From a virus: 16,162 bases of DNA. Location of the stretch: the UHGV virus genome UHGV-0124814; one strand, 5' to 3'. Positions within the stretch are counted from its first letter, which is position 1. Each line of letters opens with the position of its first letter. Below the pieces are notes generated by a model. It worked only from the letters and a program-made list of their open reading frames with translations, was not told where the DNA came from and did no database searches. The translations under genes and the position numbers were made by a program. Below are positions 1 through 16,112 of this stretch, piece after piece.

Positions 1-37
1 CGCCATAATTGATTTAATTCACAAATAAAACTATAAC

Positions 38-706
38 ATGGTGAAATCAATGAAAAAAAACACAGATGATGGGGCTAAAATTTACACACCACTTACCCTA
101 AAGCTTTATGACTGGTGGGTTTTGGGAGTATCAAATCGGCTTGCATGGGGATGTCCTACAAAGGAACACCTTCTTCCACACTTTCTGGAACATTTAGGTA
201 ACAACCATCTGGATATTGGTGTTGGAACTGGGTTTTATCTTACTCACGTACCTGAGAGTAGTCTGATATCTTTAATGGATTTGAACGAAGCTAGCCTGAA
301 CGCGGCATCTACAAGGGCTGGGGAATCAAAAATTAAACATAAAATTAGCCATGATGTTTTTGAACCTTATCCCGCGGCGTTACATGGTCAATTTGATTCC
401 ATTTCCATGTTTTACCTTCTTCACTGCCTGCCTGGAAATATATCTACAAAAAGCTGTGTAATACGCAATGCGGCGCAGGCCTTAACTGACGATGGAACTC
501 TATACGGAGCCACAATTCTTGGCGATGGAGTTGTGCACAATAGCTTCGGTCAAAAACTGATGCGCATTTACAATCAGAAAGGCATCTTTTCAAACACAAA
601 AGATTCCGAAGAAGGCTTAACACATATACTCTCAGAGCATTTCGAGAATGTTAAAACCAAGGTTCAAGGTACTGTAGTAATGTTTTCCGCTTCAGGGAAA
701 AAATAG
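38..706 (+). CDS. Class I SAM-dependent methyltransferase, substrate unknown (cargo gene in the b-region position)
   Basis: 222-aa ORF; glycine-rich SAM-binding motif 'LDIGVGTGFYL', then 'LMDLNE' and 'FDSISMFYLLHCL'; visibly AT-rich; ATG at 38 lacks an obvious SD, alternative ATG at 50 is preceded by GGTGA. Confidence 0.7.
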   Translation: MVKSMKKNTDDGAKIYTPLTLKLYDWWVLGVSNRLAWGCPTKEHLLPHFLEHLGNNHLDIGVGTGFYLTHVPESSLISLMDLNEASLNAASTRAGESKIKHKISHDVFEPYPAALHGQFDSISMFYLLHCLPGNISTKSCVIRNAAQALTDDGTLYGATILGDGVVHNSFGQKLMRIYNQKGIFSNTKDSEEGLTHILSEHFENVKTKVQGTVVMFSASGKK

Positions 707-713
707 CATCCAA

Positions 714-746
714 CCGCAGCACGTTCTTGCTTAAGACGTGCTGCGG
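714..746. terminator. Perfect 10-bp inverted repeat (CCGCAGCACG ... CGTGCTGCGG) with 13-nt loop between convergent methyltransferase and tfa genes; likely bidirectional terminator
   Basis: Stem-loop read directly; sits in the 54-bp gap between two convergent stop codons; T-run follows on the - strand. Confidence 0.4.
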
Positions 747-760
747 CATAATCCCAATGA

Positions 761-1345
761 TTACTCACTGACAGGGTTCGTAGGCCACTCAATATCAGGT
801 GCAGTTGATGTATCAACACGGTTCAGCAACACCCGATACTTCTTCCAGGCTTCCAGCAACGAGTTTTCTTCCTCCGTTGCGATTTCCAGATCTGCAGCAT
901 CCTGAAGCGGCGCAATATGCTCACTGGCTACCTGCATCAGGTTGTTTTTTGTTTCTTCCGCCTCCCGGATCCGGAACAGTTTTTCTGCTTCCGTATCCTT
1001 CACCCAGGCTGTGCCGTTCCACTTCTGAAACTCCCCTTCCGGCGATAACCAGGTAACATTTTCCGGTAACGGACCGAGTTCAGAAATAAATAACGCGTCC
1101 CCTGACGCTACGTCATAAACCGTTTTACCCCGATGGTCTTCAACGAGATGCCACGATGACTCATCACTGTTGAAAACAGCCACGAAGCCAGCCGGAATAT
1201 CTGGCGGTGCAATATAGGTACTGTTTGCAGGCAGACCTGTATGAGGTGGAATATATGCGTCACCTTCACCAATAAATTCATTAGTTCCGGCCAGCAGATT
1301 ATAAATTTTTATGGTCCGTGGTTGTTCACTCATTCTGAATGCCAT
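761..1345 (-). CDS. tfa: Tail fiber assembly protein Tfa
   Basis: 194-aa ORF '[31 protein letters not shown]...' matching lambda Tfa from memory; start ATG overlaps the stf stop (TAATG). Confidence 0.9.
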
Positions 1346-4041
1346 TATGCAAGCCTCACAATGTAGTTAAATGCGATGTTTTTGACGGTGTTTTCCGCGT
1401 TACCCGCAGCGTTAACGGTGATGGTATGTCCATGTGAACCAATCGCAACGGAGTGCGTATGAGCACCAATACCGACAGTATGCGCGTGTGCACCTGCAGA
1501 TGCTGCTGTGCCGGACAGTGAGTGGCTATGATTACCATCTGTACTGGTATTCGCTAACCACCCCGTAGACATACCTACTGAGCCTTGTACACCCCAGGTA
1601 TTTTGACCTGAGCTTGTATAACCATATTGATAAGTATCTTTAAAAACACTGGGGTTAAATCGACGGCCATCTCTATGGCTGTGATTACCAGCTGCATTCG
1701 TGCTGCCACTTAAACTATGGGTATGCGCACCAGTGTTATTCGTGGATTTAGTGCCGTAATCAAACGACGATGTGGTTTTCGTCCCCAAATCCGTACTGGA
1801 TGCGCTGGCGCTGTGGGTGTGCGATTTAATGCCGTCCCGTTCCTGAGACAATACGGCACGACCACTGGCAGGTTTGCCCTTAATCGTCCAGCCACGCATA
1901 TCAGGGATCACGCCTGACGGATAAGCGGCTGCAAGTTTCGGGTAGGCAGATTTGTCAAAAGTCTGCCCCTGCATCAGGGCATAACCAGACGGAACGGTAT
2001 CCGATGGCCACGGGATTGGTGCGCCAGGCGGATAAAACTGCTCTGATGGCGTATAGAGTGAATAAACTGTACCGTCCGTTAACCCTTCCGGCTTATTAGC
2101 AGAATATGCTGGTGACGTATGAATCGTCACGCTGGCATTACTGGTATAATCCCATTGAATATTTACACCAGTCGCATAATTTCCGATTGCAACGTAAATA
2201 TCGTAAGTATCACCAGATGTATTGACCCAGGCAAAATTTGTAAACCCTGTCGATGTGCGCTGCCATAAAGCACCAGTAATCCCCTTCGGATTACCATTAC
2301 CTGCACGCAAAACAAGTTCAGATATACCTGCCTGTTGAGGTGAACCGACGTTAAATCCAGTGCCACCAATCAACGTAATTGAAACAACAGAACTCGCCTG
2401 TGGCATGGTTACCGTTGCTAATTTGAACCAACCAGCACCACCGCTGAATGACATTGTTGTTGAGTTAAGCGTACCAATATCTTTCGGCGTCAGTGTTATA
2501 TCCTCCGAAAGCGCCTTACCATTCACCTTACGGTCAGAAGGTACCCGATCATTCGCATTGTCATTCGCTGCTTTAACTGCCTTCGGTGTCGCGGCAAGCG
2601 TTTCAGACGTACTGTTTGTCGCACTGCTGAGCTGTACTATCCCCTTTTTCGTCGTGCTCGCATCCTCAAGCGCCACGGCGGATGCAATATCCTCTGCCCG
2701 TTTTGCCGCTGTCTCAGCGCGCGTTGCTGCGGATTCTGCCGTACTTTTGCTCTGTGCTGCCGCTGTCGCACTGCCAGCAGCCTCTGTCGCCTTTGTGGAT
2801 GCCGTCGTGGCGCTGCTCTTCGCTGCTGACGCCTGTCTGGTCGCCTCATCTTTTGAAGCAGACGCCGATGATGCCGATGACGCCGCCGAACTGGCGGACG
2901 ATGCCGCTGCCGTTTTTGAGGATTCTGCGCTGGTTTCCGACGCTTTCGCGTTCGTTTCGGATGTCTTCGCTGAGGAAGCAGACCTCGCTGCTGCGCTGGC
3001 CTGTTCAGTGGCTTCGCCAGTCTTCGTTGTGGCTGTTGAAGCGGATGATGCGGCGCTTTCTGCCGATTTTCCGGCGGCGGTGGCACTGACTGAGGCCTGC
3101 CCGGCACTTGTTGATGCGGCACTGGCGGACGACGCAGCCGCTGTTTTTGAATCTGCCGCAGCTGAGGCACTCTGTCCCGCTGCCGTTTCAGAAGACCTGG
3201 CGTTCGTCTCGGACGTTTTGGCCGCCTTCGCAGAATTTGCTGTCGCCGTTGCCGAGGAAGCTGCGCTGCTGGCGCTCGAGGCTGCGCTCGTTTCTGATGA
3301 TTTTGCCGCCTCTTTTGAAGCCGACGCATCCCGGGCTGAGGTGGCAGCTTCTGACGCTTTCGTGGTCGCGGTGGATGCAGAAGTGGCTGCTGATTGTTGT
3401 GACGCTGCGGCATTCGTTTCTGACGTTTTCGCCGCAGCGGCACTGGTGGCCGCCGCGCTTTTTGAGGACTCTGCAGCGGCAGCACTTTTTTCCGCTTCAG
3501 TGGCCTTTGTTGATGCCGTTTCTGCGCTGGAAGACGCTGACTGAGCCGACGACGCGGCCTGTCCGGCTGACGTGCTGGCTGCGCGTGCTGAGCCTGCAGC
3601 ATCAGTCGCATGGGTTGCCGCCTCACGGGCTGATGTGCTGGCATCGCCGGCTGACTTCTTCGCGGCTGCCGTGTTCTGTGCCACTGCGGACGCGTTACGC
3701 TCCACCTCTTCCACCATCACTTCAAAACGGCGCAGTGCCTCCGGTCGGACATCATCCTCCGTCATGGCACCGAGAAAATCATTCAGCGTACCTGGTCTGG
3801 AACCTTCATAGACGGTAATGGTCCCGGCATGTGAAGGCGGAAAACCTTCAACCAGCAGGGTGACGCTGTACTGACCATGCTCAACATCCATGCTGTAACG
3901 TCCGGCTTCATCCGGATTTTCAGAGGCCACCGTGTTCACCACCACCGTGCTGCTGGTTCGTCTGGCCTTCAGCACAATGGTGCAGTTCTGTACTGGTTTT
4001 CCTGTGCCATCTTTAAGCACGCCAGAAATTTTTACTGTCAT
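1345..4041 (-). CDS. stf: Side tail fiber protein Stf
   Basis: 898-aa ORF; N-terminus '[22 protein letters not shown]...' matches lambda Stf as recalled; central Ala/Ser/Thr-rich repeats; C-terminal HxH-rich region ending '...[11 protein letters not shown]'. Confidence 0.9.
2690..3700 (-). repeat. Degenerate tandem Ala/Ser/Thr-rich repeats inside stf (recurring '...AAKTSETNA...', '...SSASSAASS...', '...STATTK...')
   Basis: Repeated peptide blocks read from the translation; the GCN-rich DNA creates long spurious ORFs in other frames on both strands. Confidence 0.6.
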
Positions 4042-4052
4042 ACTTTTCCACC

Positions 4053-4088
4053 AATAAAAAAAGCCCGCAGCAGTGACGCCACGGGCTT
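4053..4088 (-). terminator. Rho-independent terminator downstream of lom (stem AAGCCCG/CGGGCTT followed by T-run on the - strand)
   Basis: Hairpin plus U-tract read on the - strand between the lom stop (4193) and stf start (4041). Confidence 0.5.
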
Positions 4089-4192
4089 CAGGACAGTGTA
4101 ACTTTACGTTTCCTCAAACGCAGTTCACCCCATAAGGTGGATGAACCTGCGTATCATAACAATATTTACAGAAGATAAATCGGCGTCTGTTG

Positions 4193-4792
4193 TCAGAAAC
4201 GGTATCCGATACCAACAATAAATGCATCCGTTCGCCAGTCGCCACTACCGGAACCTTCATAAGCAAGGTCAATGGTCACGGATTCGGTCGGATTAAACTG
4301 CACGCCAGCCCCCCACGCCAGAGACGTGTTGCTGTGGCGACCGTCATCACTTCCGGTCAGCACATCGTGCGTTTTCCCCTTGTTGTCAGTTACGCGGAGA
4401 TAATCCCCGGAGAAAGTCGAAATACGGCTGTAAGCCACACCCGCCATCGCATACGCGCTGAACCATTCATTCACGCGCACAGACGGCCCCGCCATTACGC
4501 TGAACCAGCGGTTACGAACGGAATCTTCATGCCAGCGGGTATCGCTGTAACGGGTCAGCTGGCGATTCTTGTCTCCTGCATAGCTGAATGACGTCACCAG
4601 CCCCAGTGTGTCCGTAAACTCATAACGGTATTTCACGTTAATCCCGTTCAGATCATCACTGCCGGGGACGTTCGTCGAGGCATGAAGATACCCCGCGCTC
4701 AGCGTGGACTGATGTTCAGACGCCCATGCAGGCGCACCGGATACGGCCAGACAAATGGCTGCGGACAAAATTGCTGCACAAACTTTACGCAT
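4193..4792 (-). CDS. lom: Lom outer-membrane protein (Ail/Lom/PagC family beta-barrel)
   Basis: 199-aa ORF 'MRKVCAAILSAAICLAVSGAPAWASEHQSTLSAGYLH...GIGYRF' with signal peptide and C-terminal aromatic residue; near-identical to lambda Lom as recalled; SD GAGAGG upstream. Confidence 0.9.
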   Translation of the reverse strand: MRKVCAAILSAAICLAVSGAPAWASEHQSTLSAGYLHASTNVPGSDDLNGINVKYRYEFTDTLGLVTSFSYAGDKNRQLTRYSDTRWHEDSVRNRWFSVMAGPSVRVNEWFSAYAMAGVAYSRISTFSGDYLRVTDNKGKTHDVLTGSDDGRHSNTSLAWGAGVQFNPTESVTIDLAYEGSGSGDWRTDAFIVGIGYRF

Positions 4793-4862
4793 AATTACCT
4801 CTCGCTTTTCTGCAATAAAAAAGGCGTCACTCCTGACGCCCTTTATTGGGGTTATAAATATT

Positions 4863-6026
4863 TCAACGAATACTGATGCCGGAAGCGGCTTTTTTGGTCA
4901 CAATCACCGTACAGTCGGTGATATTGCCTGCCCCCTGATTGCCTTTCTGGAAAATCTTAAACTCCAGAGTGACGCTACCACCACCACTAGGCATATCAAT
5001 AACTGCACTGTAACTACCGGGAATGGCCCCTTTAGTTTCTCTGGATGCGATTAATACGCCGTTTTTGCGAACTTCAAAACCATAACCCGTGTATCGCGTG
5101 CCTCCTGGGTTATTTCCGCTCCCCGGATCGTCATACGCTATACCGTTAAAAATAATGGGCGGAATAATAATCTGGCGGTCAAAGTTATGATCATCGCTGA
5201 TGGTGACTGTAACCGTACCGTTTGGTGTTTCCGTGTTACCCCACGTACCGACTTTTTTCGGGAAGGCTTTTGATACAGCTTTAACGAAATCCCCTCTGAC
5301 CTGGGTCGCCTCCAGCATGCCCTTAATCGTACAGTTCTGGTTAATCTTGACATTGTTGAGCGTTCCTGAGTTCGCATTCACACTGCCACTGATATCCGCA
5401 TTTTTAGCGGTCAGCTTTCCGTCTGATGTCAGGGAAAATACCGGAGGACTGCCACCGCTGGTAATGGTGGGGGCCGTCAGGCGCTTCAGGAACACGTCGT
5501 TCATGAATATCTGGTTGCCCTGCGCCACAAACATCGGCGTTTCATTCCCGTTTGCCGGGTCAATAAACGCGATACGGTTAGCGGCAACCAGAAACTGGCT
5601 CAGCTTGCCTTCCTCCGTGTCCTCCATGCTGAGGCCAATACCCGCGACATAATGTTTGCCGTCTTTGGTCTGCTCAATTTTGACGCCCCACATGGCATTC
5701 CATTTATCGTTAGCGTCCTTCCACTCTTTCGAAAACTCCTCCAGTCTGCTGGCGTTATCTTCCGTCAGCTCAAAGTTTTCCAGCAGTTCCTTGCCGAGAT
5801 GCGTTTTATTGATCAACCCTTTATAAAAATTCAGATAACCTTCCGCATCATCGCTCGCCCGACCGACGGCCTCCACAAATGCCGATTTACCAACGGTGTT
5901 CACGCTGCGGATATAAAAGTAATAATCATAACCTGGCTTAATATTGCTACTGGCGGCTATCCAGTACAGCGCCGTACCAAGATAACGCGCGCTGGTTTCA
6001 ACCTGCCTGATATCGATAAGCGGATT
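4863..6026 (-). pseudogene. J: C-terminal fragment (~387 codons) of tail tip/host-specificity protein J; N-terminal part of the gene deleted
   Basis: Open frame from 6026 down to the stop at 4863 with no ATG at its 5' end (first candidate is GTG at 5903); translation resembles the lambda J C-terminus as recalled. Confidence 0.8.
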
Positions 6027-6352
6027 TTATAGGCACGGGTATCACCTTCATTAAACCACACCAGCAGCGCCTGCTGCCCCTGCTCTCCGGGCATCCACGC
6101 CAGCGTGAAGCTGGTATCTCCGGCGGATTTCTGACCCTGCCCGGTCGCGGTCCAGTCCGCATCTTCATCATCGAGATAACTGTCGTCATAGGACTCAGCG
6201 GTCAGTTCGCCGGGCGTCAGGTCTTTAACTTTAGCCAGACGCGACCAGTCAACGTCTGAAAGCGGGTTCGCATAAGGGTCGCCGCTCCCGTTATAAACCC
6301 ACAGGGTGGTTCCGGCACCTTTCACCGGTATTGCTGGATTTGGTACAGGCAT
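5957..6352 (-). pseudogene. V: Truncated major tail tube protein V (N-terminal ~120 aa, then out-of-frame read-through into J sequence)
   Basis: '[20 protein letters not shown]...TRAYKIR' matches the lambda gpV N-terminus as recalled, then changes to '[20 protein letters not shown]' and stops; lambda V is about twice as long. Confidence 0.8.
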
Positions 6353-6359
6353 ATCGTCC

Positions 6360-6755
6360 TCACATTTCATAGGTAATGACATAAGTCAGATCGGCAGAAC
6401 TCCACAGGCCCGCATCATCGTCGCGCCGGTAGTCATAGCCGCTGGCCACCATACTGGTGATCAAATCTGACAGTGCCGGGACATCGCTCATCACCGGATA
6501 AATCCGGGACTCCATCCACGAATCCAGCTCTGAATCCGGCACCTGAGCAGGCAGGAAAACTTCAATATGCAGCTCCGCCTGCCAGGTATCACTGTCCAGC
6601 TCTTCGCCCGTGTATTCAGCGCCGGTGAGATAAACGGCAATTGCCGGAAAATCCGCCTCATCAAAAACAGCGGGGCGACCATCAAAAAGCGTCGCCCCGG
6701 TGTCATGCTTCTCCAGTGCATCCAGTACGGCTGCACGGAGTTCAGTATGTTTCAT
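6360..6755 (-). CDS. U: Minor tail protein U (tail terminator), apparently intact
   Basis: 131-aa ORF '[36 protein letters not shown]...' matching lambda gpU in sequence and length; start ATG overlaps the upstream stop (ATGA). Confidence 0.9.
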
Positions 6756-7165
6756 CGCTTTATTACCATTCTCAGTTGATGCTGCAGCGCATAGCCCAGC
6801 TCTTTCGGAAGACGTTCACGCCGTATCCGTTCAATATTCTGTTTAAACGCCGTGGTAAGCGGCACCGCCATCGGGATTTTCACCACATCAATGGGGTAAC
6901 GGTTTTTCCCGGCCACACGCTGCATGACATGCCACCGGCCATTTTTCAGTTGCTGAATAAACGCGCCGGGAATACGACGGTTTCCCACCACAAGCACGCT
7001 GCCGCCACCTTTCAGGGATGAACGCTGCCCCTTTTTACGACGTCTGCGGCGGGAAAGGACAACCCGCGCGTTACCCAGCTTGATTACGGGCAAATCCTGC
7101 CAGTTCTGAATGGTACGGATACTCGCGCCGAAAATGTCAGCCAGCTGCTTTTTGTTGACTTCCAT
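6752..7165 (-). pseudogene. In-frame fusion of the first 23 codons of terminase small subunit Nu1 to the C-terminal part of a Z-like tail completion protein
   Basis: 'MEVNKKQLADIFGASIRTIQNWQ' is the lambda Nu1 N-terminus, then sequence switches at ~7096 to a basic tail ('DLPVIKLGNARVVLSRRRRRKKGQ...') that I believe is the gpZ C-terminus; ATG sits at the conserved distance from cos. Confidence 0.7.
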
Positions 7166-7375
7166 TGTTCATTCCACGGACAAAAACAGAGAAAGGAAAC
7201 GACAGAGGCCAAAAAGCCCGTTTTCAGCACCTGTCGTTTCCTTTCTTTTCAGAGGGTATTTTAAATAAAAACATTAAGTTATGACGAAGAAGAACGGAAA
7301 CGCCTTAAACCGGAAAATTTTCATAAATAGCGAAAACCCGCGAGGTCGCCGCCCCGTAACCTGTCGGATCGCCGG
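7166..7375 (-). other. Lambda-type cos packaging site (cosQ side ~7345-7375, cosN 12-nt end at 7333-7344, cosB toward Nu1)
   Basis: Reverse complement of 7333-7344 is GGGCGGCGACCT, flanked by 'GATCCGACAGGTTACG' on one side and 'CGCGGGTTTTCGCTATTTATGAAAATTTTCCGG...' leading to the Nu1 ATG on the other, as in the lambda left end; sequence diverges from lambda beyond ~7395. Confidence 0.8.
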
Positions 7376-7566
7376 AAAGGACCCACCAAAAATGATAATG
7401 ATTATCAAATACGTTTATCACACTGATATTCAGAATCACTACTGAAAGACTCCCTTTGTGGTGCGCGAGGGATGCGCATAAAAAAACCACCAGCAAATGC
7501 CAGTGGCTAAAGATATTCATTGCGAATAACCATCACAAAACAACTTAACTCGTGAGGGTAGAAATT

Positions 7567-7971
7567 TTACTCGAGGCCAAATTTCTTCTTTAAATAGGCC
7601 TTCGTTAACTCCAGCCCAACATCTTTGATTGTACTCAAAGGGGCATCGCTCATTGACTTTAATTTCTCAAAAACCGTAGGTTCATTTAATGCCTGGGCGA
7701 ATTCTTGTCCCTGCGCAGATAGTCGCACGTCGGTACCCATATCTAGCATATGGCCACAATGGCGCATGTAGCCCAGTTTAGTTATGTCATCCGTTATTAG
7801 ATCTTTATTACTGATATAACCTTGCTCAATAAGAAGTAGATAATGAAACATCCCTTCATTCGAGCAGATATCGTACCCCGCATTAGCTAAGTCTTTTGTA
7901 GATATAAAGGGAGTTTTCGCTTTCAAAAATACCTCAAGCATCCCCTTCATGTATTCTAAATTTTTAACCAC
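7567..7971 (-). CDS. Hypothetical protein, 134 aa, AT-rich moron
   Basis: GTG start at 7971 preceded by strong SD (TAAGGAGGTTTTT-GTG); no family recognised. Confidence 0.55.
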   Translation of the reverse strand: MVKNLEYMKGMLEVFLKAKTPFISTKDLANAGYDICSNEGMFHYLLLIEQGYISNKDLITDDITKLGYMRHCGHMLDMGTDVRLSAQGQEFAQALNEPTVFEKLKSMSDAPLSTIKDVGLELTKAYLKKKFGLE

Positions 7972-8106
7972 AAAAACCTCCTTAGGATAATTGGAGGTCT
8001 AGAATACCGTTTGCAAGCACGTTGATAAATCATTATCACAGGCACTCAATGAATGCCTGCTGTAATTGCGTACGGTAATGAACGTAAAAAACCGCCCGAG
8101 GTATAT

Positions 8107-8331
8107 TTAGACATTAGATGGCGCTTTGTCAGTATAGACCCGGTACGCCCTGACAAACATCCCGTTACATTCAGAGTCCGCCTTGATATACGCCAATTCG
8201 TAACCCCGATGCTTTAGCTCTTCACGAGCTCTTTTCTCTTCCTTAGCCATGAAGTTAAGATCTTTAATTTCTGAGTAGGTATATGTTCCCACTATAAAAT
8301 CTCTGCCTGGCCGTCCATTTATCAGTTCCAT
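8107..8331 (-). CDS. Hypothetical protein, 74 aa, AT-rich moron (ORF-track version extends to a TTG at 8397)
   Basis: ATG at 8331 preceded by GGGAGGA SD; protein 'MELINGRPGRDFIVGTYTYSEIKDLNFMAKEEKRAREELKHRGYELAYIKADSECNGMFVRAYRVYTDKAPSNV'; no family recognised. Confidence 0.5.
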   Translation of the reverse strand: MELINGRPGRDFIVGTYTYSEIKDLNFMAKEEKRAREELKHRGYELAYIKADSECNGMFVRAYRVYTDKAPSNV

Positions 8332-8424
8332 GTGTCCTCCCAAAAAGTTGGTAGTCAGAACATACCATGCTAAGCGAGGTGAAAGCACCTTTATCAAGCC
8401 CCCCGCAGATAGACTTTGTAATGG

Positions 8425-8712
8425 CTACTTCTTCAGAAATGATTCGATGAACTCACGCCGGGGATGACGATAGTTCAGAATATCTTCTGGCATCCTCATA
8501 AAGCGGTTGTTGCCGTCTTTGGCAGTAACGAAACAGCAGTGAACTCCGCAGACATCCGTTTTGATCGTGTCGCCATACTCAAAAAGCAACTGCGCCATCT
8601 TCTCTTGCCATTCTTGCGGCATAGCCTCCATGAATACTCTCGGCATCACGCAGAACGACGCATGCGTCAGGCCAAACCACAATTGCAGGTCTTTACGATA
8701 TTCTTCATCCAT
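8425..8712 (-). CDS. Hypothetical Cys-containing protein, 95 aa ('...DVCGVHCCF...'), moron
   Basis: ATG at 8712 with AAGG ~10 nt upstream, lying 19 nt downstream of a terminator-like hairpin; no family recognised. Confidence 0.5.
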   Translation of the reverse strand: MDEEYRKDLQLWFGLTHASFCVMPRVFMEAMPQEWQEKMAQLLFEYGDTIKTDVCGVHCCFVTAKDGNNRFMRMPEDILNYRHPRREFIESFLKK

Positions 8713-8730
8713 CGTCTTTACCTTTGTTGC

Positions 8731-8756
8731 AATAAAAAGCCCCGCGAATGCGAGGC
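8731..8756 (-). terminator. Rho-independent terminator-like hairpin (GCCUCGC-AUUC-GCGGGGC then UUUUUAUU) between Rz/Rz1 and the moron ORFs
   Basis: 7-bp GC-rich stem (one G-U pair), 4-nt loop and T-tract read on the - strand. Confidence 0.5.
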
Positions 8757-8930
8757 TAAATCCTGGTGTTTGTGATGACTGGCTCTTATCTCAACGCAGC
8801 CCCTTACCGCGCGCAAGATGCTCAATATCAAGCATCAGCAATGAGATGTTAAATCTGGATTCACTCCAGAAGTGATCACCACCCTGTCTACAGAGCCAGA
8901 TGTGAAGGATGATGAGTAAAATTATCGCTA

Positions 8931-9398
8931 TCATCGAAGGCATTGCGTCCTGATGTATTCCTGAAGCGTTCTCAGTGCTGTTTGGTCGCGGATAATTCCG
9001 TCCCGGATACCGAGAACGTTTCGTCCAGCAACTGGAGAGAGTTCGACGGTGGCATCATTGCCCATGCCGGAGGCGCTGGAGGTTTCGGCTGAGGATGGCA
9101 CAGGGCATTTTCCTTTGACGAGCACCCTGCCACCATTATCAAGCTTGCGACGAAGAGCATCATTTTCAGCTTTCGCATCAGCTAACTCCTTCGTGTATTT
9201 TGCATCGAGCGCAGCAACATCACGCTGACGCATCTGCATGTCAGTAATTGCCGCGTTCGCCAGCTTCAGTTCTCTGACATTTTTGTCGCGCTGGGCTTTG
9301 TAGGTAATGGCGTTATCACGGTAATGATTCAGCCCCAGACTAAGCACACCACAGGCTACCAGCAGGACAATAATCACCACACACAGAACACGGTTCAT
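8931..9398 (-). CDS. Rz: Rz i-spanin
   Basis: From ATG at 9398 (SD GGTGGTGA): '[17 protein letters not shown]...[60 protein letters not shown]...' closely resembling lambda Rz; the longer track ORF starts at an upstream codon. Confidence 0.85.
8972..9178 (-). CDS. Rz1: Rz1 o-spanin lipoprotein, embedded in Rz in the +1 frame
   Basis: 68-aa ORF '[21 protein letters not shown]...' with lipobox 'VAGC' and proline-rich stretch '[11 protein letters not shown]'; embedded position typical of Rz1. Confidence 0.8.
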
Positions 9399-9497: not shown

Positions 9498-10433
9498 TCA
9501 CGATTTCAGCGCAATGACCAGTTTTGCCAGCCCATACAGCATCGGAGACACAGCAATAGCGTATGTATTTTTCCAGTAATACGTCGTGTCACCACAAATC
9601 CACGGCACATTTACAGCACTGCCACCATGACACTGCGCGTTAAACACAGTGAGGTCAGCACGAAACTGCTTCAGCATGGCTGTAAACAGCGCAGGTTGCT
9701 GTGCGTAGGTGGCGGCGCTCATGTCAAACTCTCCCTGCATCCAGCACACCGCCAGCAACACATTTTTCGGGTTCTTCTGTAATGCCGCTTTGGTGCGTGC
9801 GATCAGGTCCTGATATAACGGTTTACCCACACCCCAGCGTGCCGAATCCTGGCTGGCCCCCGTGTCCGCACTGAATGTCCCCTCCGCGCCCTGGGTGAAT
9901 GCCGAACCACCACGACAGCATGGTACCAGCAGGATCCCCGCGTTATTCGGGATATACGGAAGCAGTTTTTTGGCAATATGTAAGCCCTGGCCGACACAGC
10001 CGTACTGCCCTTTGCTCAGGTCTGCCTTCGGATGATTCAGCGTACTCATATCCTGCACATCATGCAGACAGTGGTCAGCCGGGATGATGTCGTTATACGT
10101 ACAACTCTCTCCACCCGGAGTTACCGTGCTGCGGCGCGCCAGCTGTTTAATGCGCGGATCCGGAGCATCGTAAGAATCCGGTAACGGAAGCCCTTCACCG
10201 TAGGCCATGCCGTTGGACTGTCCGGCAAGCACAACCACGTAGAACCAGTCCGGCTCAGATGAAGGGCCGACCTGTGGATCTCCTTCAATAGCCACCGCCT
10301 GCATCAGTGTGTACGGCGTAATGGCAACCGGTCCGCCATATGGCTGCCAGCCCTCTTTCAGTTTGTGTGTCAGCTTTTCCGCAAGGTCTGACGGCGACGC
10401 CGCCCTGACAACATCATAGTGTTTAAATGCCAT
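9498..10433 (-). CDS. Prophage NanS-p-like sialate 9-O-acetylesterase (N-terminal DUF1737-like segment plus esterase core), probably C-terminally truncated
   Basis: 311-aa ORF with 'VVLAGQSNGMAYGEGLPLPD', 'GILLVPCCRGGSAF', 'CWMQGEFD', 'WICGDTTYYWK' resembling E. coli NanS/YjhS as recalled; strong SD GGGAGGA; ORF ends ~100 nt before Rz. Confidence 0.8.
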   Translation of the reverse strand: MAFKHYDVVRAASPSDLAEKLTHKLKEGWQPYGGPVAITPYTLMQAVAIEGDPQVGPSSEPDWFYVVVLAGQSNGMAYGEGLPLPDSYDAPDPRIKQLARRSTVTPGGESCTYNDIIPADHCLHDVQDMSTLNHPKADLSKGQYGCVGQGLHIAKKLLPYIPNNAGILLVPCCRGGSAFTQGAEGTFSADTGASQDSARWGVGKPLYQDLIARTKAALQKNPKNVLLAVCWMQGEFDMSAATYAQQPALFTAMLKQFRADLTVFNAQCHGGSAVNVPWICGDTTYYWKNTYAIAVSPMLYGLAKLVIALKS

Positions 10434-11222: not shown

Positions 11223-11678
11223 TCAAACGATTAAATCCTGAACTTCCCTGACTGTCTGCTCAAAACGTCCGGTCTCCAGTTCAACGCCAATCGCACGACG
11301 CCCGAGCGCCAGTGCCGCTTTTACCGTTGAACCTGAGCCCATAAAAAAATCTGCAACCTGGTCTCCCGGACGACTGCTCGCGTTGATTATCTGCTGCAAC
11401 ATTTCTGCCGGTTTTTCGCACGGATGTTTCCCTGGATAGTACTGCACCGGTTTATACGTCCACACATCGGTGTACGGCACCTGCACCGTCACACCGAAAT
11501 ACCTCCGCAAATTTTTATATTCACTCAGCAGTTCCATATACTGCCGGTTCAGCTCACTGTATGTGCTGACCAGTTGGTAATGGGACTTTTCCAGTTCTCC
11601 CCGCTGATGTTTCTCTTCTGCCACCCGGGCAAACAGCGACTGTAATTTCAGATAATCGCTTTCGTTCGGTATCCGGCG
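11223..11678 (-). pseudogene. C-terminal fragment of a phage DNA N6-adenine/N4-cytosine methyltransferase; N-terminal half absent
   Basis: Frame open from 11678 with no ATG (first start-like codon is GTG at 11624); contains 'HPCEKP' and C-terminal SAM motif 'FFMGSGST' but no DPPY-type motif. Confidence 0.65.
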
Positions 11679-14694: not shown

Positions 14695-14755
14695 TGTTCA
14701 ACCGTCGCCAGTTGTCGTTGATATTCTGCAACTGGCGCGTTCCGGAGTGATAGCC

Positions 14756-15025
14756 ATGAGCGAACAGTACCTGATAACGCTCGACGAGTGGAAACCAAAA
14801 CGGTTCAGTCTCCCAATAACAAACACTACCCTGGTGAAATACGGAAAACTAGGATACATCGTTCCAAGACCACAAAAAATTCGTGGGCGTTGGCTGATAG
14901 ATCGCCGAGCAGTATTTGTTGGGCCTGGTGAAACGGGAATTGCGCCGGAAATTCATACTGGCGATGATGATGCACTGAAGGAGATTTTAACTCATGTCAC
15001 CGAGGCCACGAAAAAACAGCACTGA
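14756..15025 (+). CDS. xis: Excisionase (Xis-like)
   Basis: 89-aa ORF from ATG at 14756 (SD GGAG 8 nt upstream), immediately upstream of and overlapping int by 32 nt. Confidence 0.65.
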   Translation: MSEQYLITLDEWKPKRFSLPITNTTLVKYGKLGYIVPRPQKIRGRWLIDRRAVFVGPGETGIAPEIHTGDDDALKEILTHVTEATKKQH

Positions 15026-16112
15026 CGTAGCCGGTCTTTACGAAAAGTTTGATCGCAGAACTGGCAGAGTTTACTACCAGTATAAAAATCCTGTGACTGG
15101 AAAATTTCACGGACTCGGAACAGACAAAGGTAAGGCAGAAAAAATCGCTTCCACAGCCAATCAGCGAATAGCTGCAGCAGAAGCTGAATATTTCATGCGC
15201 AAAATTGATGAAAGTCCGTCAGCAACAAAACGTCGGGGTATCAGATTAAAGGCATGGGTTGATCGATATCTGAAAATACAGGACACGCGACTGAAAAATG
15301 GAGATATTGCAGCTACAACTCACAAAGAAAAAACTCGAATGGCTGCATACCTGGTTTCCCGTCTGGGAAACCCCCCATTGAAAGAACTGGAAGTAAGAGA
15401 CTTTGCATTAATACTGGATGAGTGGCTGGATAAAGACATGGTCAGCACAGCGAGAGTAAATCGTGGATTATGGGTTGATATTTATAAAGAAGCACAGCAT
15501 GCAGGGGAAGTTCCTCCTGGATGGAATCCTCCGGAGGCTACCCGTAAACCGATCCCTAAAGTAACCAGAGCCAGGCTCACCATGGAAGACTGGCAAAAAA
15601 TTTACAATGCAACGCCTGAAAAACACTTTATCCGTAACGCAATGCTTCTTGCGATTGTTACTGGTCAGCGCCGTGATGACATTTGCCACATGCGTTTTTC
15701 AGATGTGTGGAACGAACACTTGCATATCACCCAGGGAAAAACCGGAATGCGTCTGGCGTTACCGCTTACACTACGCTGTGATGCCATTGGGATAACGTTA
15801 AAAGAAGTTATTGATGGGTGCCGAGACAGAATATTAAGTCCATATCTAATCCATAGTCGGCACCAGAAACAACCGAAGCCGATGAGTAAAGACAACCTGA
15901 GCGACTACTTTGCCAAAGCACGGGATCTGGCTGGGATAATTCCACCAGCAGGAAAAACTCCGCCAACATTTCATGAACAACGCTCTCTATCAGAACGGCT
16001 GTACCGTGCACAGGGTATCGATACAAAAACATTACTAGGACATAAAGTCCAGGCAACCACCGATCGCTATAACGATACTCGAGGTCAGGAATGGGTTAAG
16101 CTGGTTATTTGA
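14994..16112 (+). CDS. int: Tyrosine site-specific integrase, lambda Int family
   Basis: 372-aa ORF; C-terminal catalytic region '...TGQRRDDICHMRFSDV...', 'HEQRSLSERLY', 'LLGHKVQATTDRYNDTRGQEW' parallels lambda Int RHR-Y motifs; distinct from lambda Int itself. Confidence 0.9.
   Translation: MSPRPRKNSTDVAGLYEKFDRRTGRVYYQYKNPVTGKFHGLGTDKGKAEKIASTANQRIAAAEAEYFMRKIDESPSATKRRGIRLKAWVDRYLKIQDTRLKNGDIAATTHKEKTRMAAYLVSRLGNPPLKELEVRDFALILDEWLDKDMVSTARVNRGLWVDIYKEAQHAGEVPPGWNPPEATRKPIPKVTRARLTMEDWQKIYNATPEKHFIRNAMLLAIVTGQRRDDICHMRFSDVWNEHLHITQGKTGMRLALPLTLRCDAIGITLKEVIDGCRDRILSPYLIHSRHQKQPKPMSKDNLSDYFAKARDLAGIIPPAGKTPPTFHEQRSLSERLYRAQGIDTKTLLGHKVQATTDRYNDTRGQEWVKLVI

Follow-up and report, generated by a model that had tools for sequence, protein, structure and literature searches.

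The J-derived DNA in the analyzed virus sequence (UHGV-0124814; this whole stretch of 16,162 nt is referred to as the window) is best explained as the scar of a recent deletion, silent and inert, within a lambdoid prophage undergoing decay; its sole potential role would be that of a passive template for recombination, and we assign this reading a probability of about 0.88. According to the proposed scenario, one illegitimate deletion of 8.5 kb with a 2-nt microhomology would have removed the late operon from codon 112 of V through codon 753 of J. What remained of a 434-type J, its fibre and receptor-binding end, would thereby have become fused out of frame to the truncated V. The truncated genes are denoted J' and V' below, and the join between them is denoted V'-'J.

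The reference for the reconstruction was found by megablast of the whole window against complete Escherichia coli genomes. The prophage of strain AF39 (NZ_OZ547136.1; coordinates L001) carries the full set of late genes Nu1-A-W-B-C-D-E-FI-FII-Z-U-V-G-T-H-M-L-K-I-J-lom-stf-tfa. Comparison by blastn and inspection revealed that positions 4863-6019 of the window are 100% identical at the DNA level, with zero mismatches, to the intact 1137-codon J gene of this prophage, a match that chance could not produce. The fragment comprises 1,157 nt: the stop codon, the 384 codons of residues 754-1137 (of 1137) in full, and 2 nt left of codon 753. Its identity is settled by the exact DNA match to an annotated, intact J together with the full-length Pfam domains (Table 1). 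In the ORF map, the minus-strand frame is open from 6026 to 4863 (388 codons counting the stop), and the reading made from the sequence only had proposed a fragment of ~387 codons between these positions. The approximate codon count and the boundary at 4863 hold, but the end at 6026 lies 7 nt within V-derived DNA, where the frame is open by chance back to a TAA codon; the J-derived DNA is confined to 4863-6019 because the blastn blocks against AF39 end there.

That reading had correctly recognized the fragment as the C-terminal, receptor-specifying part of J, in agreement with both the AF39 alignment, which places it at residues 754-1137, and the Pfam domains; the role of the J C-terminus in receptor specificity has been described previously (PMC3509688, PMC11101478). 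The cryo-EM structure of the lambda tail tip (PMC11101478) divides gpJ into hub domains, a pair of FNIII domains, a shaft of alpha-helical structure, the central straight fibre and the receptor-binding domain. With the breakpoint mapped by residue position, the predicted content of J' is the end of the second FNIII domain followed by the shaft, the fibre and the receptor-binding domain. The hub domains and the first FNIII domain (residues 1 to ~750), which are required for building the tail tip, are missing. Since J' starts at residue 754 and its Ig_J_second domain is truncated, it is a gene fragment and not a functional member of the gpJ family.

Table 1. Features of the remnant prophage in the 16,162-nt window
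Feature	Coordinates	Strand	Details
Methyltransferase gene	38-706	+	
tfa, intact, fibre assembly, 194 aa	761-1345	-	PF02413 Caudo_TAP
stf, intact, side tail fibre, 898 aa	1345-4041	-	PF08400 phage_tail_N and PF07484 Collar
lom, intact, Ail/Lom outer-membrane protein, 199 aa	4193-4792	-	PF06316 full length, E=7e-122
G+C-rich hairpin with T/A runs between J' and lom, intrinsic-terminator-like	4823-4840		phage 434 has an annotated terminator at the same position
J' pseudogene (3' end of the tip-attachment/central-fibre gene J)	4863-6019	-	identity to AF39 J and Pfam
Ig_GpJ_C PF12421, complete receptor-binding domain, putative 434 (OmpC) type	4869-5276	-	E=1.3e-25, profile 1-134 of 135
Phage_Tail_Tip PF09327, complete (shaft and central straight fibre of gpJ)	5361-5744	-	E=1.5e-34, profile 2-138 of 139
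Ig_J_second PF24489 (second Ig/FNIII-like domain), 5'-truncated	5823-6014	-	E=6e-20, profile 41-104 of 105, fragment residues 2-65
V' ORF: 111 V codons, 20 out-of-frame codons of J DNA, stop	5957-6352	-	PF16461 Phage_TTP_12, profile 1-94 of 135
V'/'J junction, 2-nt microhomology (AA on the plus strand)	6018-6019		two AF39 alignment blocks overlap by 2 nt
U, intact, tail terminator, 131 aa	6360-6755	-	PF06141 full length, E=1.6e-61; 100% identical to AF39
Nu1' (23 codons)-'Z (114 codons) in-frame fusion ORF	6752-7165	-	Phage_Nu1 residues 1-31; Minor_tail_Z profile 74-190
cosN, lambda cohesive-end 12-mer GGGCGGCGACCT	7343-7354	-	exact match, 189 nt upstream of Nu1' start
Three small ORFs	7567-7971, 8107-8397, 8425-8712	-	no Pfam match; unknown-function PHROG families 585, 6100, 3527
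SASA-family esterase, N-terminal half, 311 aa (617 aa in AF39)	9498-10433	-	
Three tRNAs: Arg-TCT, Arg-TCG, CAT anticodon	10924-11173	-	CAT is Met by ARAGORN, Ile in RefSeq relatives
DNA-methyltransferase fragment, C-terminal 133 aa (349 aa in L004)	11223-11624	-	
Exonuclease, 823 aa	12223-14694	+	
Excisionase, intact	14747-15025	+	
Integrase, intact	14994-16112	+	

J' is a deletion scar with an out-of-frame join to V', a feature absent from the sequence-only reading. Positions 1-6019 of the window correspond to AF39 L001 8268-14286 with 17 mismatches, none of them at 4436-6019, and positions 6018-7097 correspond to L001 22759-23838 with 100% identity (blastn). The 8,472 bp of AF39 that are absent at the junction (L001 14287-22758) run from codon 112 of the tail-tube gene V as far as codon 753 of J, and include the chaperone genes G and T, the tape measure gene H and the tip protein genes M, L, K and I, together with the hub domains of J. 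The exact product of the V' ORF (start at 6352) is predicted on 14 public contigs from ENA, Logan and NCBI, and the V'-'J junction was present in all 10 of these contigs that were examined, at 99.6-100% identity. All 16,162 nt of the window are matched at 100% identity by one gut-metagenome contig (L003), which runs on into potB on one side and into potC on the other; because it extends into both genes, the window represents nearly the whole element, inserted between potB and potC. The join is therefore real and not a misassembly. Lambdoid late regions are repeated in E. coli genomes and often misassembled, and one related contig shows an aberrant join at its very end; nevertheless, the occurrence of the identical junction in ten separately assembled contigs, including the one that continues into both flanking chromosomal genes, leaves next to no probability for an assembly artefact that joined two parts of an intact prophage.

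Several further interpretations of the junction were considered and rejected. A V'-J' fusion protein produced by frameshifting was discarded, as J is read in the +1 frame with respect to V, its frame is interrupted by a TAA codon at the junction, and no slippery motif is present. Look-up of the 141-aa ORF that starts at the upstream ATG 6382 gave no match, unlike that of the native V start at 6352. An exact search with the 31-nt junction sequence in a collection holding one genome per species gave no match, a result that is uninformative on the frequency of the scar. The contig with the aberrant end (L015, ENA ERZ28569672 scaffold_295) was rejected as a second context of the scar, as its sequence follows intact J past the junction. 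At positions 1-63 of this contig, the edge holds 55 nt of J from ~80 codons downstream joined to intact J, probably an assembly-edge artefact.

The description of J' as startless in the sequence-only reading is borne out: the frame is closed by a TAA codon at the junction, and it holds no credible start with a Shine-Dalgarno match. The first in-frame start-type codon of J' is a GTG at 5903, located 54 nt past the stop codon of V', and the sequence that precedes it (TATATCCGCAGC) contains no Shine-Dalgarno match. None of the six in-frame ATG codons of J' has a credible ribosome-binding site, and internal starts that would yield the receptor-binding domain alone were rejected for lack of a credible Shine-Dalgarno sequence at any of the six. 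A promoter scan of positions 700-7600 detected 5 sites, compared with 5.5 expected from shuffled sequence, and no promoter-like sites on the minus strand just upstream of J'. Because J' is devoid of a start codon, a ribosome-binding site and a promoter, and because the late-gene activator Q is deleted as well, it is most likely untranslated and useless to the cell, and we infer that it is silent.

Gene callers predict a 346-aa protein from GTG 5903 (4863-5903) on every scar-bearing contig. If this 346-codon ORF were a real gene, it would encode a shortened J fibre protein, with possible roles in receptor masking, superinfection exclusion or supply of a tip to another tail. In line with such a product, Prodigal-type callers agree on all scar contigs, and recombinant pieces of lambda J (an MBP fusion of its C-terminal 249 aa, and gpJ713) fold and bind the receptor in vitro (PMC3509688, PMC11101478). 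However, the GTG has neither a Shine-Dalgarno match nor a nearby minus-strand promoter-like site, and its distance from the V' stop makes translational coupling unlikely. Moreover, the product would be cytoplasmic and without a signal peptide, so that the outer face of OmpC would be out of its reach; incorporation into a tail tip is precluded by the lack of the hub domains; and one relative with the same potB/potC insertion site has no J' at all. We consider a functional gene very improbable, and the 346-aa 'protein' is regarded as an annotation artefact. In place of it, the locus should be annotated as a J pseudogene.

The specificity end of J' differs in type from that of lambda J. In protein alignments, identity to both lambda J and 434 J is 84% or more over residues 754 to ~985. 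Past residue ~985, identity to lambda J drops to ~30%, whereas identity to 434 J is 97-100% per 50-residue block. Over residues 1001-1137, 133 of 137 positions match 434 J, compared with 48 of 143 aligned columns for lambda J, and the last ~150 residues of J' are about 97% identical to the phage 434 protein. The best phage DNA matches of J' are likewise phage 434 and the lambda h434 hybrids, at 95%. The receptor used by phage 434 is OmpC, to which lambda equipped with the 434 J binds as well (PMC3509688, PMC11101478). From these alignments, we infer that the specificity end of J' is of the 434/OmpC type rather than of the lambda/LamB type, although the four residues that differ from 434 J could matter for OmpC binding. 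The sequence-only reading, which referred to the role of this end in lambda, had missed the difference in type.

The genes lom, stf and tfa downstream of J' are intact. Of the synteny I-J-lom-stf-tfa, the downstream half J'-lom-stf-tfa is kept, and the upstream genes from G to I are gone. All three downstream genes have open frames, Pfam domains and lengths equal to those of the AF39 prophage genes; for stf and tfa, intactness had been proposed. The statement that these host-range genes are left without the rest of the tail is in essence right, if slightly too strong, since U, a fragment of Z and the V' fragment survive.

Reconstruction of the remainder of the element revealed two more large deletions. 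The second deletion, of 7,945 bp, reaches from codon 24 of Nu1, the gene of the terminase small subunit, to codon 78 of the tail gene Z, has its junction at 7095-7097 with a 3-nt microhomology, and accounts for the head genes lost relative to AF39. To the right of this junction, window 7095-7407 corresponds to AF39 L001 31784-32094 with 98.4% identity, and the spacing between cosN and Nu1' (Table 1) fits lambda, where Nu1 starts at 191. The segment between cos and the Rz spanin (7408-9146) has no match to the AF39 prophage, and its three small ORFs may be moron genes; the Rz-type spanin gene is also encoded on the minus strand of the remnant. A tRNA cluster comparable to that of the remnant is located downstream of Q in Stx-type lambdoid phages. 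In the AF39 prophage, a porin gene annotated as ompC adjoins Q (L001 39746-40828) and has no counterpart in the window. The dicB-region genes were assigned by the ORF map and family searches to the plus strand at the right end of the window.

The truncation of the DNA methyltransferase marks the third large deletion, by which Q and the replication and immunity genes were lost. A sister contig (L004, Logan SRR12495219) has identical V'-'J and Nu1'-'Z scars, yet keeps hok, DUF968, RusA, Q and the full methyltransferase gene (L004 1-4203); compared with this contig beyond window position 11671, the window lacks everything between the methyltransferase fragment and dicB. Because this contig has both scars yet retains Q, the head and tail deletions occurred first and the deletion from Q to the immunity region occurred later. 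The ~16-kb element between potB and potC contains no genes for the terminase large subunit, portal, capsid, tape measure, tail tip or holin/endolysin, nor does it have Q or any replication or repressor genes. With essential lytic genes missing, and with the 5' end of J and its translation signals lost relative to AF39, the element is a defective prophage.

The AF39 prophage and the remnant have identical DNA at the 3' end of J and share the lom-stf-tfa-methyltransferase module; however, the AF39 prophage has a complete late operon from Nu1 to J and occupies another chromosomal site. The differences between them are distributed unevenly, as 14 of the 17 mismatches over 6 kb fall into two clusters, 10 in tfa (1100-1247) and 4 in lom (4292-4435). 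This clustering is more suggestive of patches acquired by gene conversion from other prophages than of point mutation. Outside both clusters, there are three differences from AF39 in about 7.1 kb (about 0.04%). The V'-'J scar is young, as judged from these few differences and from their complete absence in J', and an uninterrupted frame is therefore the default expectation. As J' carries no substitution compared with the intact copy, its open 384-codon frame is uninformative on selection in either direction. The 14 scar-bearing public contigs are nearly identical to one another, and none of 5,426 complete E. coli genomes carries the scar.

Relatives of the remnant have lost other parts of the same region. 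A dog isolate (L002), whose potB/potC site is likewise occupied by a prophage of this family, retains none of Z', U, V' and J', and its stf is frameshifted. A chicken isolate (L018, strain Z1323CEC0017) has an independent T'-'J scar that kept 541 J codons; as in the remnant, a C-terminal J pseudogene is followed by lom, stf and tfa, but the deletion end points are different and the fusion is to T'. Comparison of deletion end points across these relatives points to arbitrary, progressive decay rather than to retention.

The same data bear on the possibility that selection, whether on the bacterium or at the level of the prophage family, has kept J'-lom-stf-tfa as a host-range cassette. Such a cassette would be consistent with (i) the completeness of the receptor-binding and fibre domains despite the loss of the hub, along with intact stf and tfa, (ii) the persistence of the scar in the sister lineage L004, which differs from the window by a further large deletion, and (iii) the clustered mismatches in tfa and lom, which suggest ongoing gene conversion with other prophages. 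Nevertheless, given zero divergence in J' and about 0.04% outside the conversion patches, survival of the frame needs no selection, and the scar is missing from the complete genomes searched. The end points in relatives are arbitrary, including T'-'J in the chicken isolate, Nu1-'J in E. coli REL606 and complete loss of J' in the dog isolate. In lambda, lom is expressed in lysogens, so that hitch-hiking with it could account for the retention of its neighborhood. Selective maintenance is thus unlikely, and we retain the interpretation of J' as a decaying scar.

As a recombination template, J' compares well with known substrates. The J arm (window 6014-5307) aligns with lambda over 708 nt at 91.0% identity, with a longest exact run of 113 nt, and the tfa arm over 786 nt at 92.2% identity, with a longest exact run of 115 nt; the N-terminal arm of stf aligns over 934 nt at 85.9% identity, with a longest exact run of 28 nt. 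For phage 434, the segment J'-lom aligns over 1,826 nt at 94.7% identity, and the whole J' over 1,157 nt at 95.9%. In the J and tfa arms and in J'-lom, the remnant thus offers flanking homology to infecting phages of several hundred nucleotides at 88% identity or more. In the experiments of De Paepe et al. (2014; PMC3945230), the stf substrate of the Rac prophage, with 88% identity over 703 bp and a longest run of 49 bp, yielded lambda recombinants at ~2e-6, mostly via Red-beta. The J and tfa arms of the present remnant are at least as good as this substrate.

The Rac and Qin stf/tfa remnants of strain K-12 resemble the J' region in being fibre genes of defective prophages, and they recombine with lambda at 88-96% homology with a frequency of ~2e-6 (PMC3945230). 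The homology arms of the J' region are of similar length and of equal or better identity; however, the K-12 experiments scored pick-up of stf/tfa markers and not transfer of the J receptor-binding domain (PMC3945230). A closer parallel in the type of gene is provided by E. coli REL606, where the J gene of lambda took a tract of ~1.3 kb with 49 changes from the J relic ECB_00512 (Borin et al., bioRxiv 10.1101/2020.11.02.365361). With the acquired tract, lambda had a higher growth rate on all three hosts tested, and on one of these its fitness was doubled (bioRxiv 10.1101/2020.11.02.365361). In the RefSeq genome of REL606, an N-terminally truncated J pseudogene that misses ~211 codons is located directly after Nu1 in a DLP12-like remnant; we take it to correspond to ECB_00512, as the coordinate offsets agree with the published ones within 30 nt. 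ECB_00512 resembles J' in that it lacks the N-terminal part of J, belongs to a defective lambdoid prophage with a large late-operon deletion, and lies beside side-tail-fibre genes. In contrast to J', which retains 384 codons after V', it has ~948 codons after Nu1; the two are only 74-83% identical over short stretches, and their receptor-binding ends differ. Moreover, the tract transferred from ECB_00512 was the middle of J and not its receptor-binding domain.

Transfer of the J end itself is known from the lambda h434 hybrid, in which a swap by recombination retargeted lambda to OmpC (PMC3509688). Phage 434 and lambda h434 (OL657226, OM418627) share with the remnant the order J-terminator-lom and 95.9% nucleotide identity over the fragment, whereas their J genes are complete working genes in viable phages and J' lacks residues 1-753 and expression signals.

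Based on these comparisons, rescue of J' by an infecting lambdoid phage is plausible, as the sequence-only reading had proposed: the mechanism is sound, since the homology arms compare well and since the same kind of object has already been shown to recombine. In the proposed route, one crossover would take place in the conserved 5' two-thirds of J' and another in stf or tfa; for 434-like phages, the second crossover could alternatively fall in lom. Either the Red/Rad52-type recombination of the phage or the RecA pathway of the host would be used, and the product would be a phage that gains the 434-type receptor-binding domain, lom, and part or all of stf/tfa. The remnant would be a redundant rather than a unique donor, because intact prophages, such as that of AF39, carry an identical J allele.

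A more active role would require that the remnant, with its cosN, int, xis and J'-lom-stf-tfa, is a mobilizable host-range donor that a superinfecting lambdoid helper phage excises, recombines with or packages from cos, and whose late-operon end is kept by selection; we regard this as highly doubtful. The passive template is already known in kind, being an ordinary pseudogene for which the mechanism was demonstrated in REL606 and K-12. The corresponding gut E. coli lineage thus appears to hold a silent 434/OmpC-type receptor-binding module that lambdoid phages, including those 'trained' for therapy, could acquire. Its significance is small, as it adds one more natural case of a demonstrated mechanism and raises no new question.

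Two minor observations concern stf. The Ala/Ser-rich repeats of this gene contain a 394-codon antisense ORF at 2360-3544 on the plus strand, and a '379-aa gene' after lom in three contigs (L004, L006 and L008) was rejected as a new context, as these contigs are 100% identical to the window and the ORF is antisense within stf. The antisense 'gene' and the contig breaks near window position 1915 look like annotation and assembly artefacts of the stf repeats. In the L015 contig, stf is split into ORFs of 505 and 393 aa.
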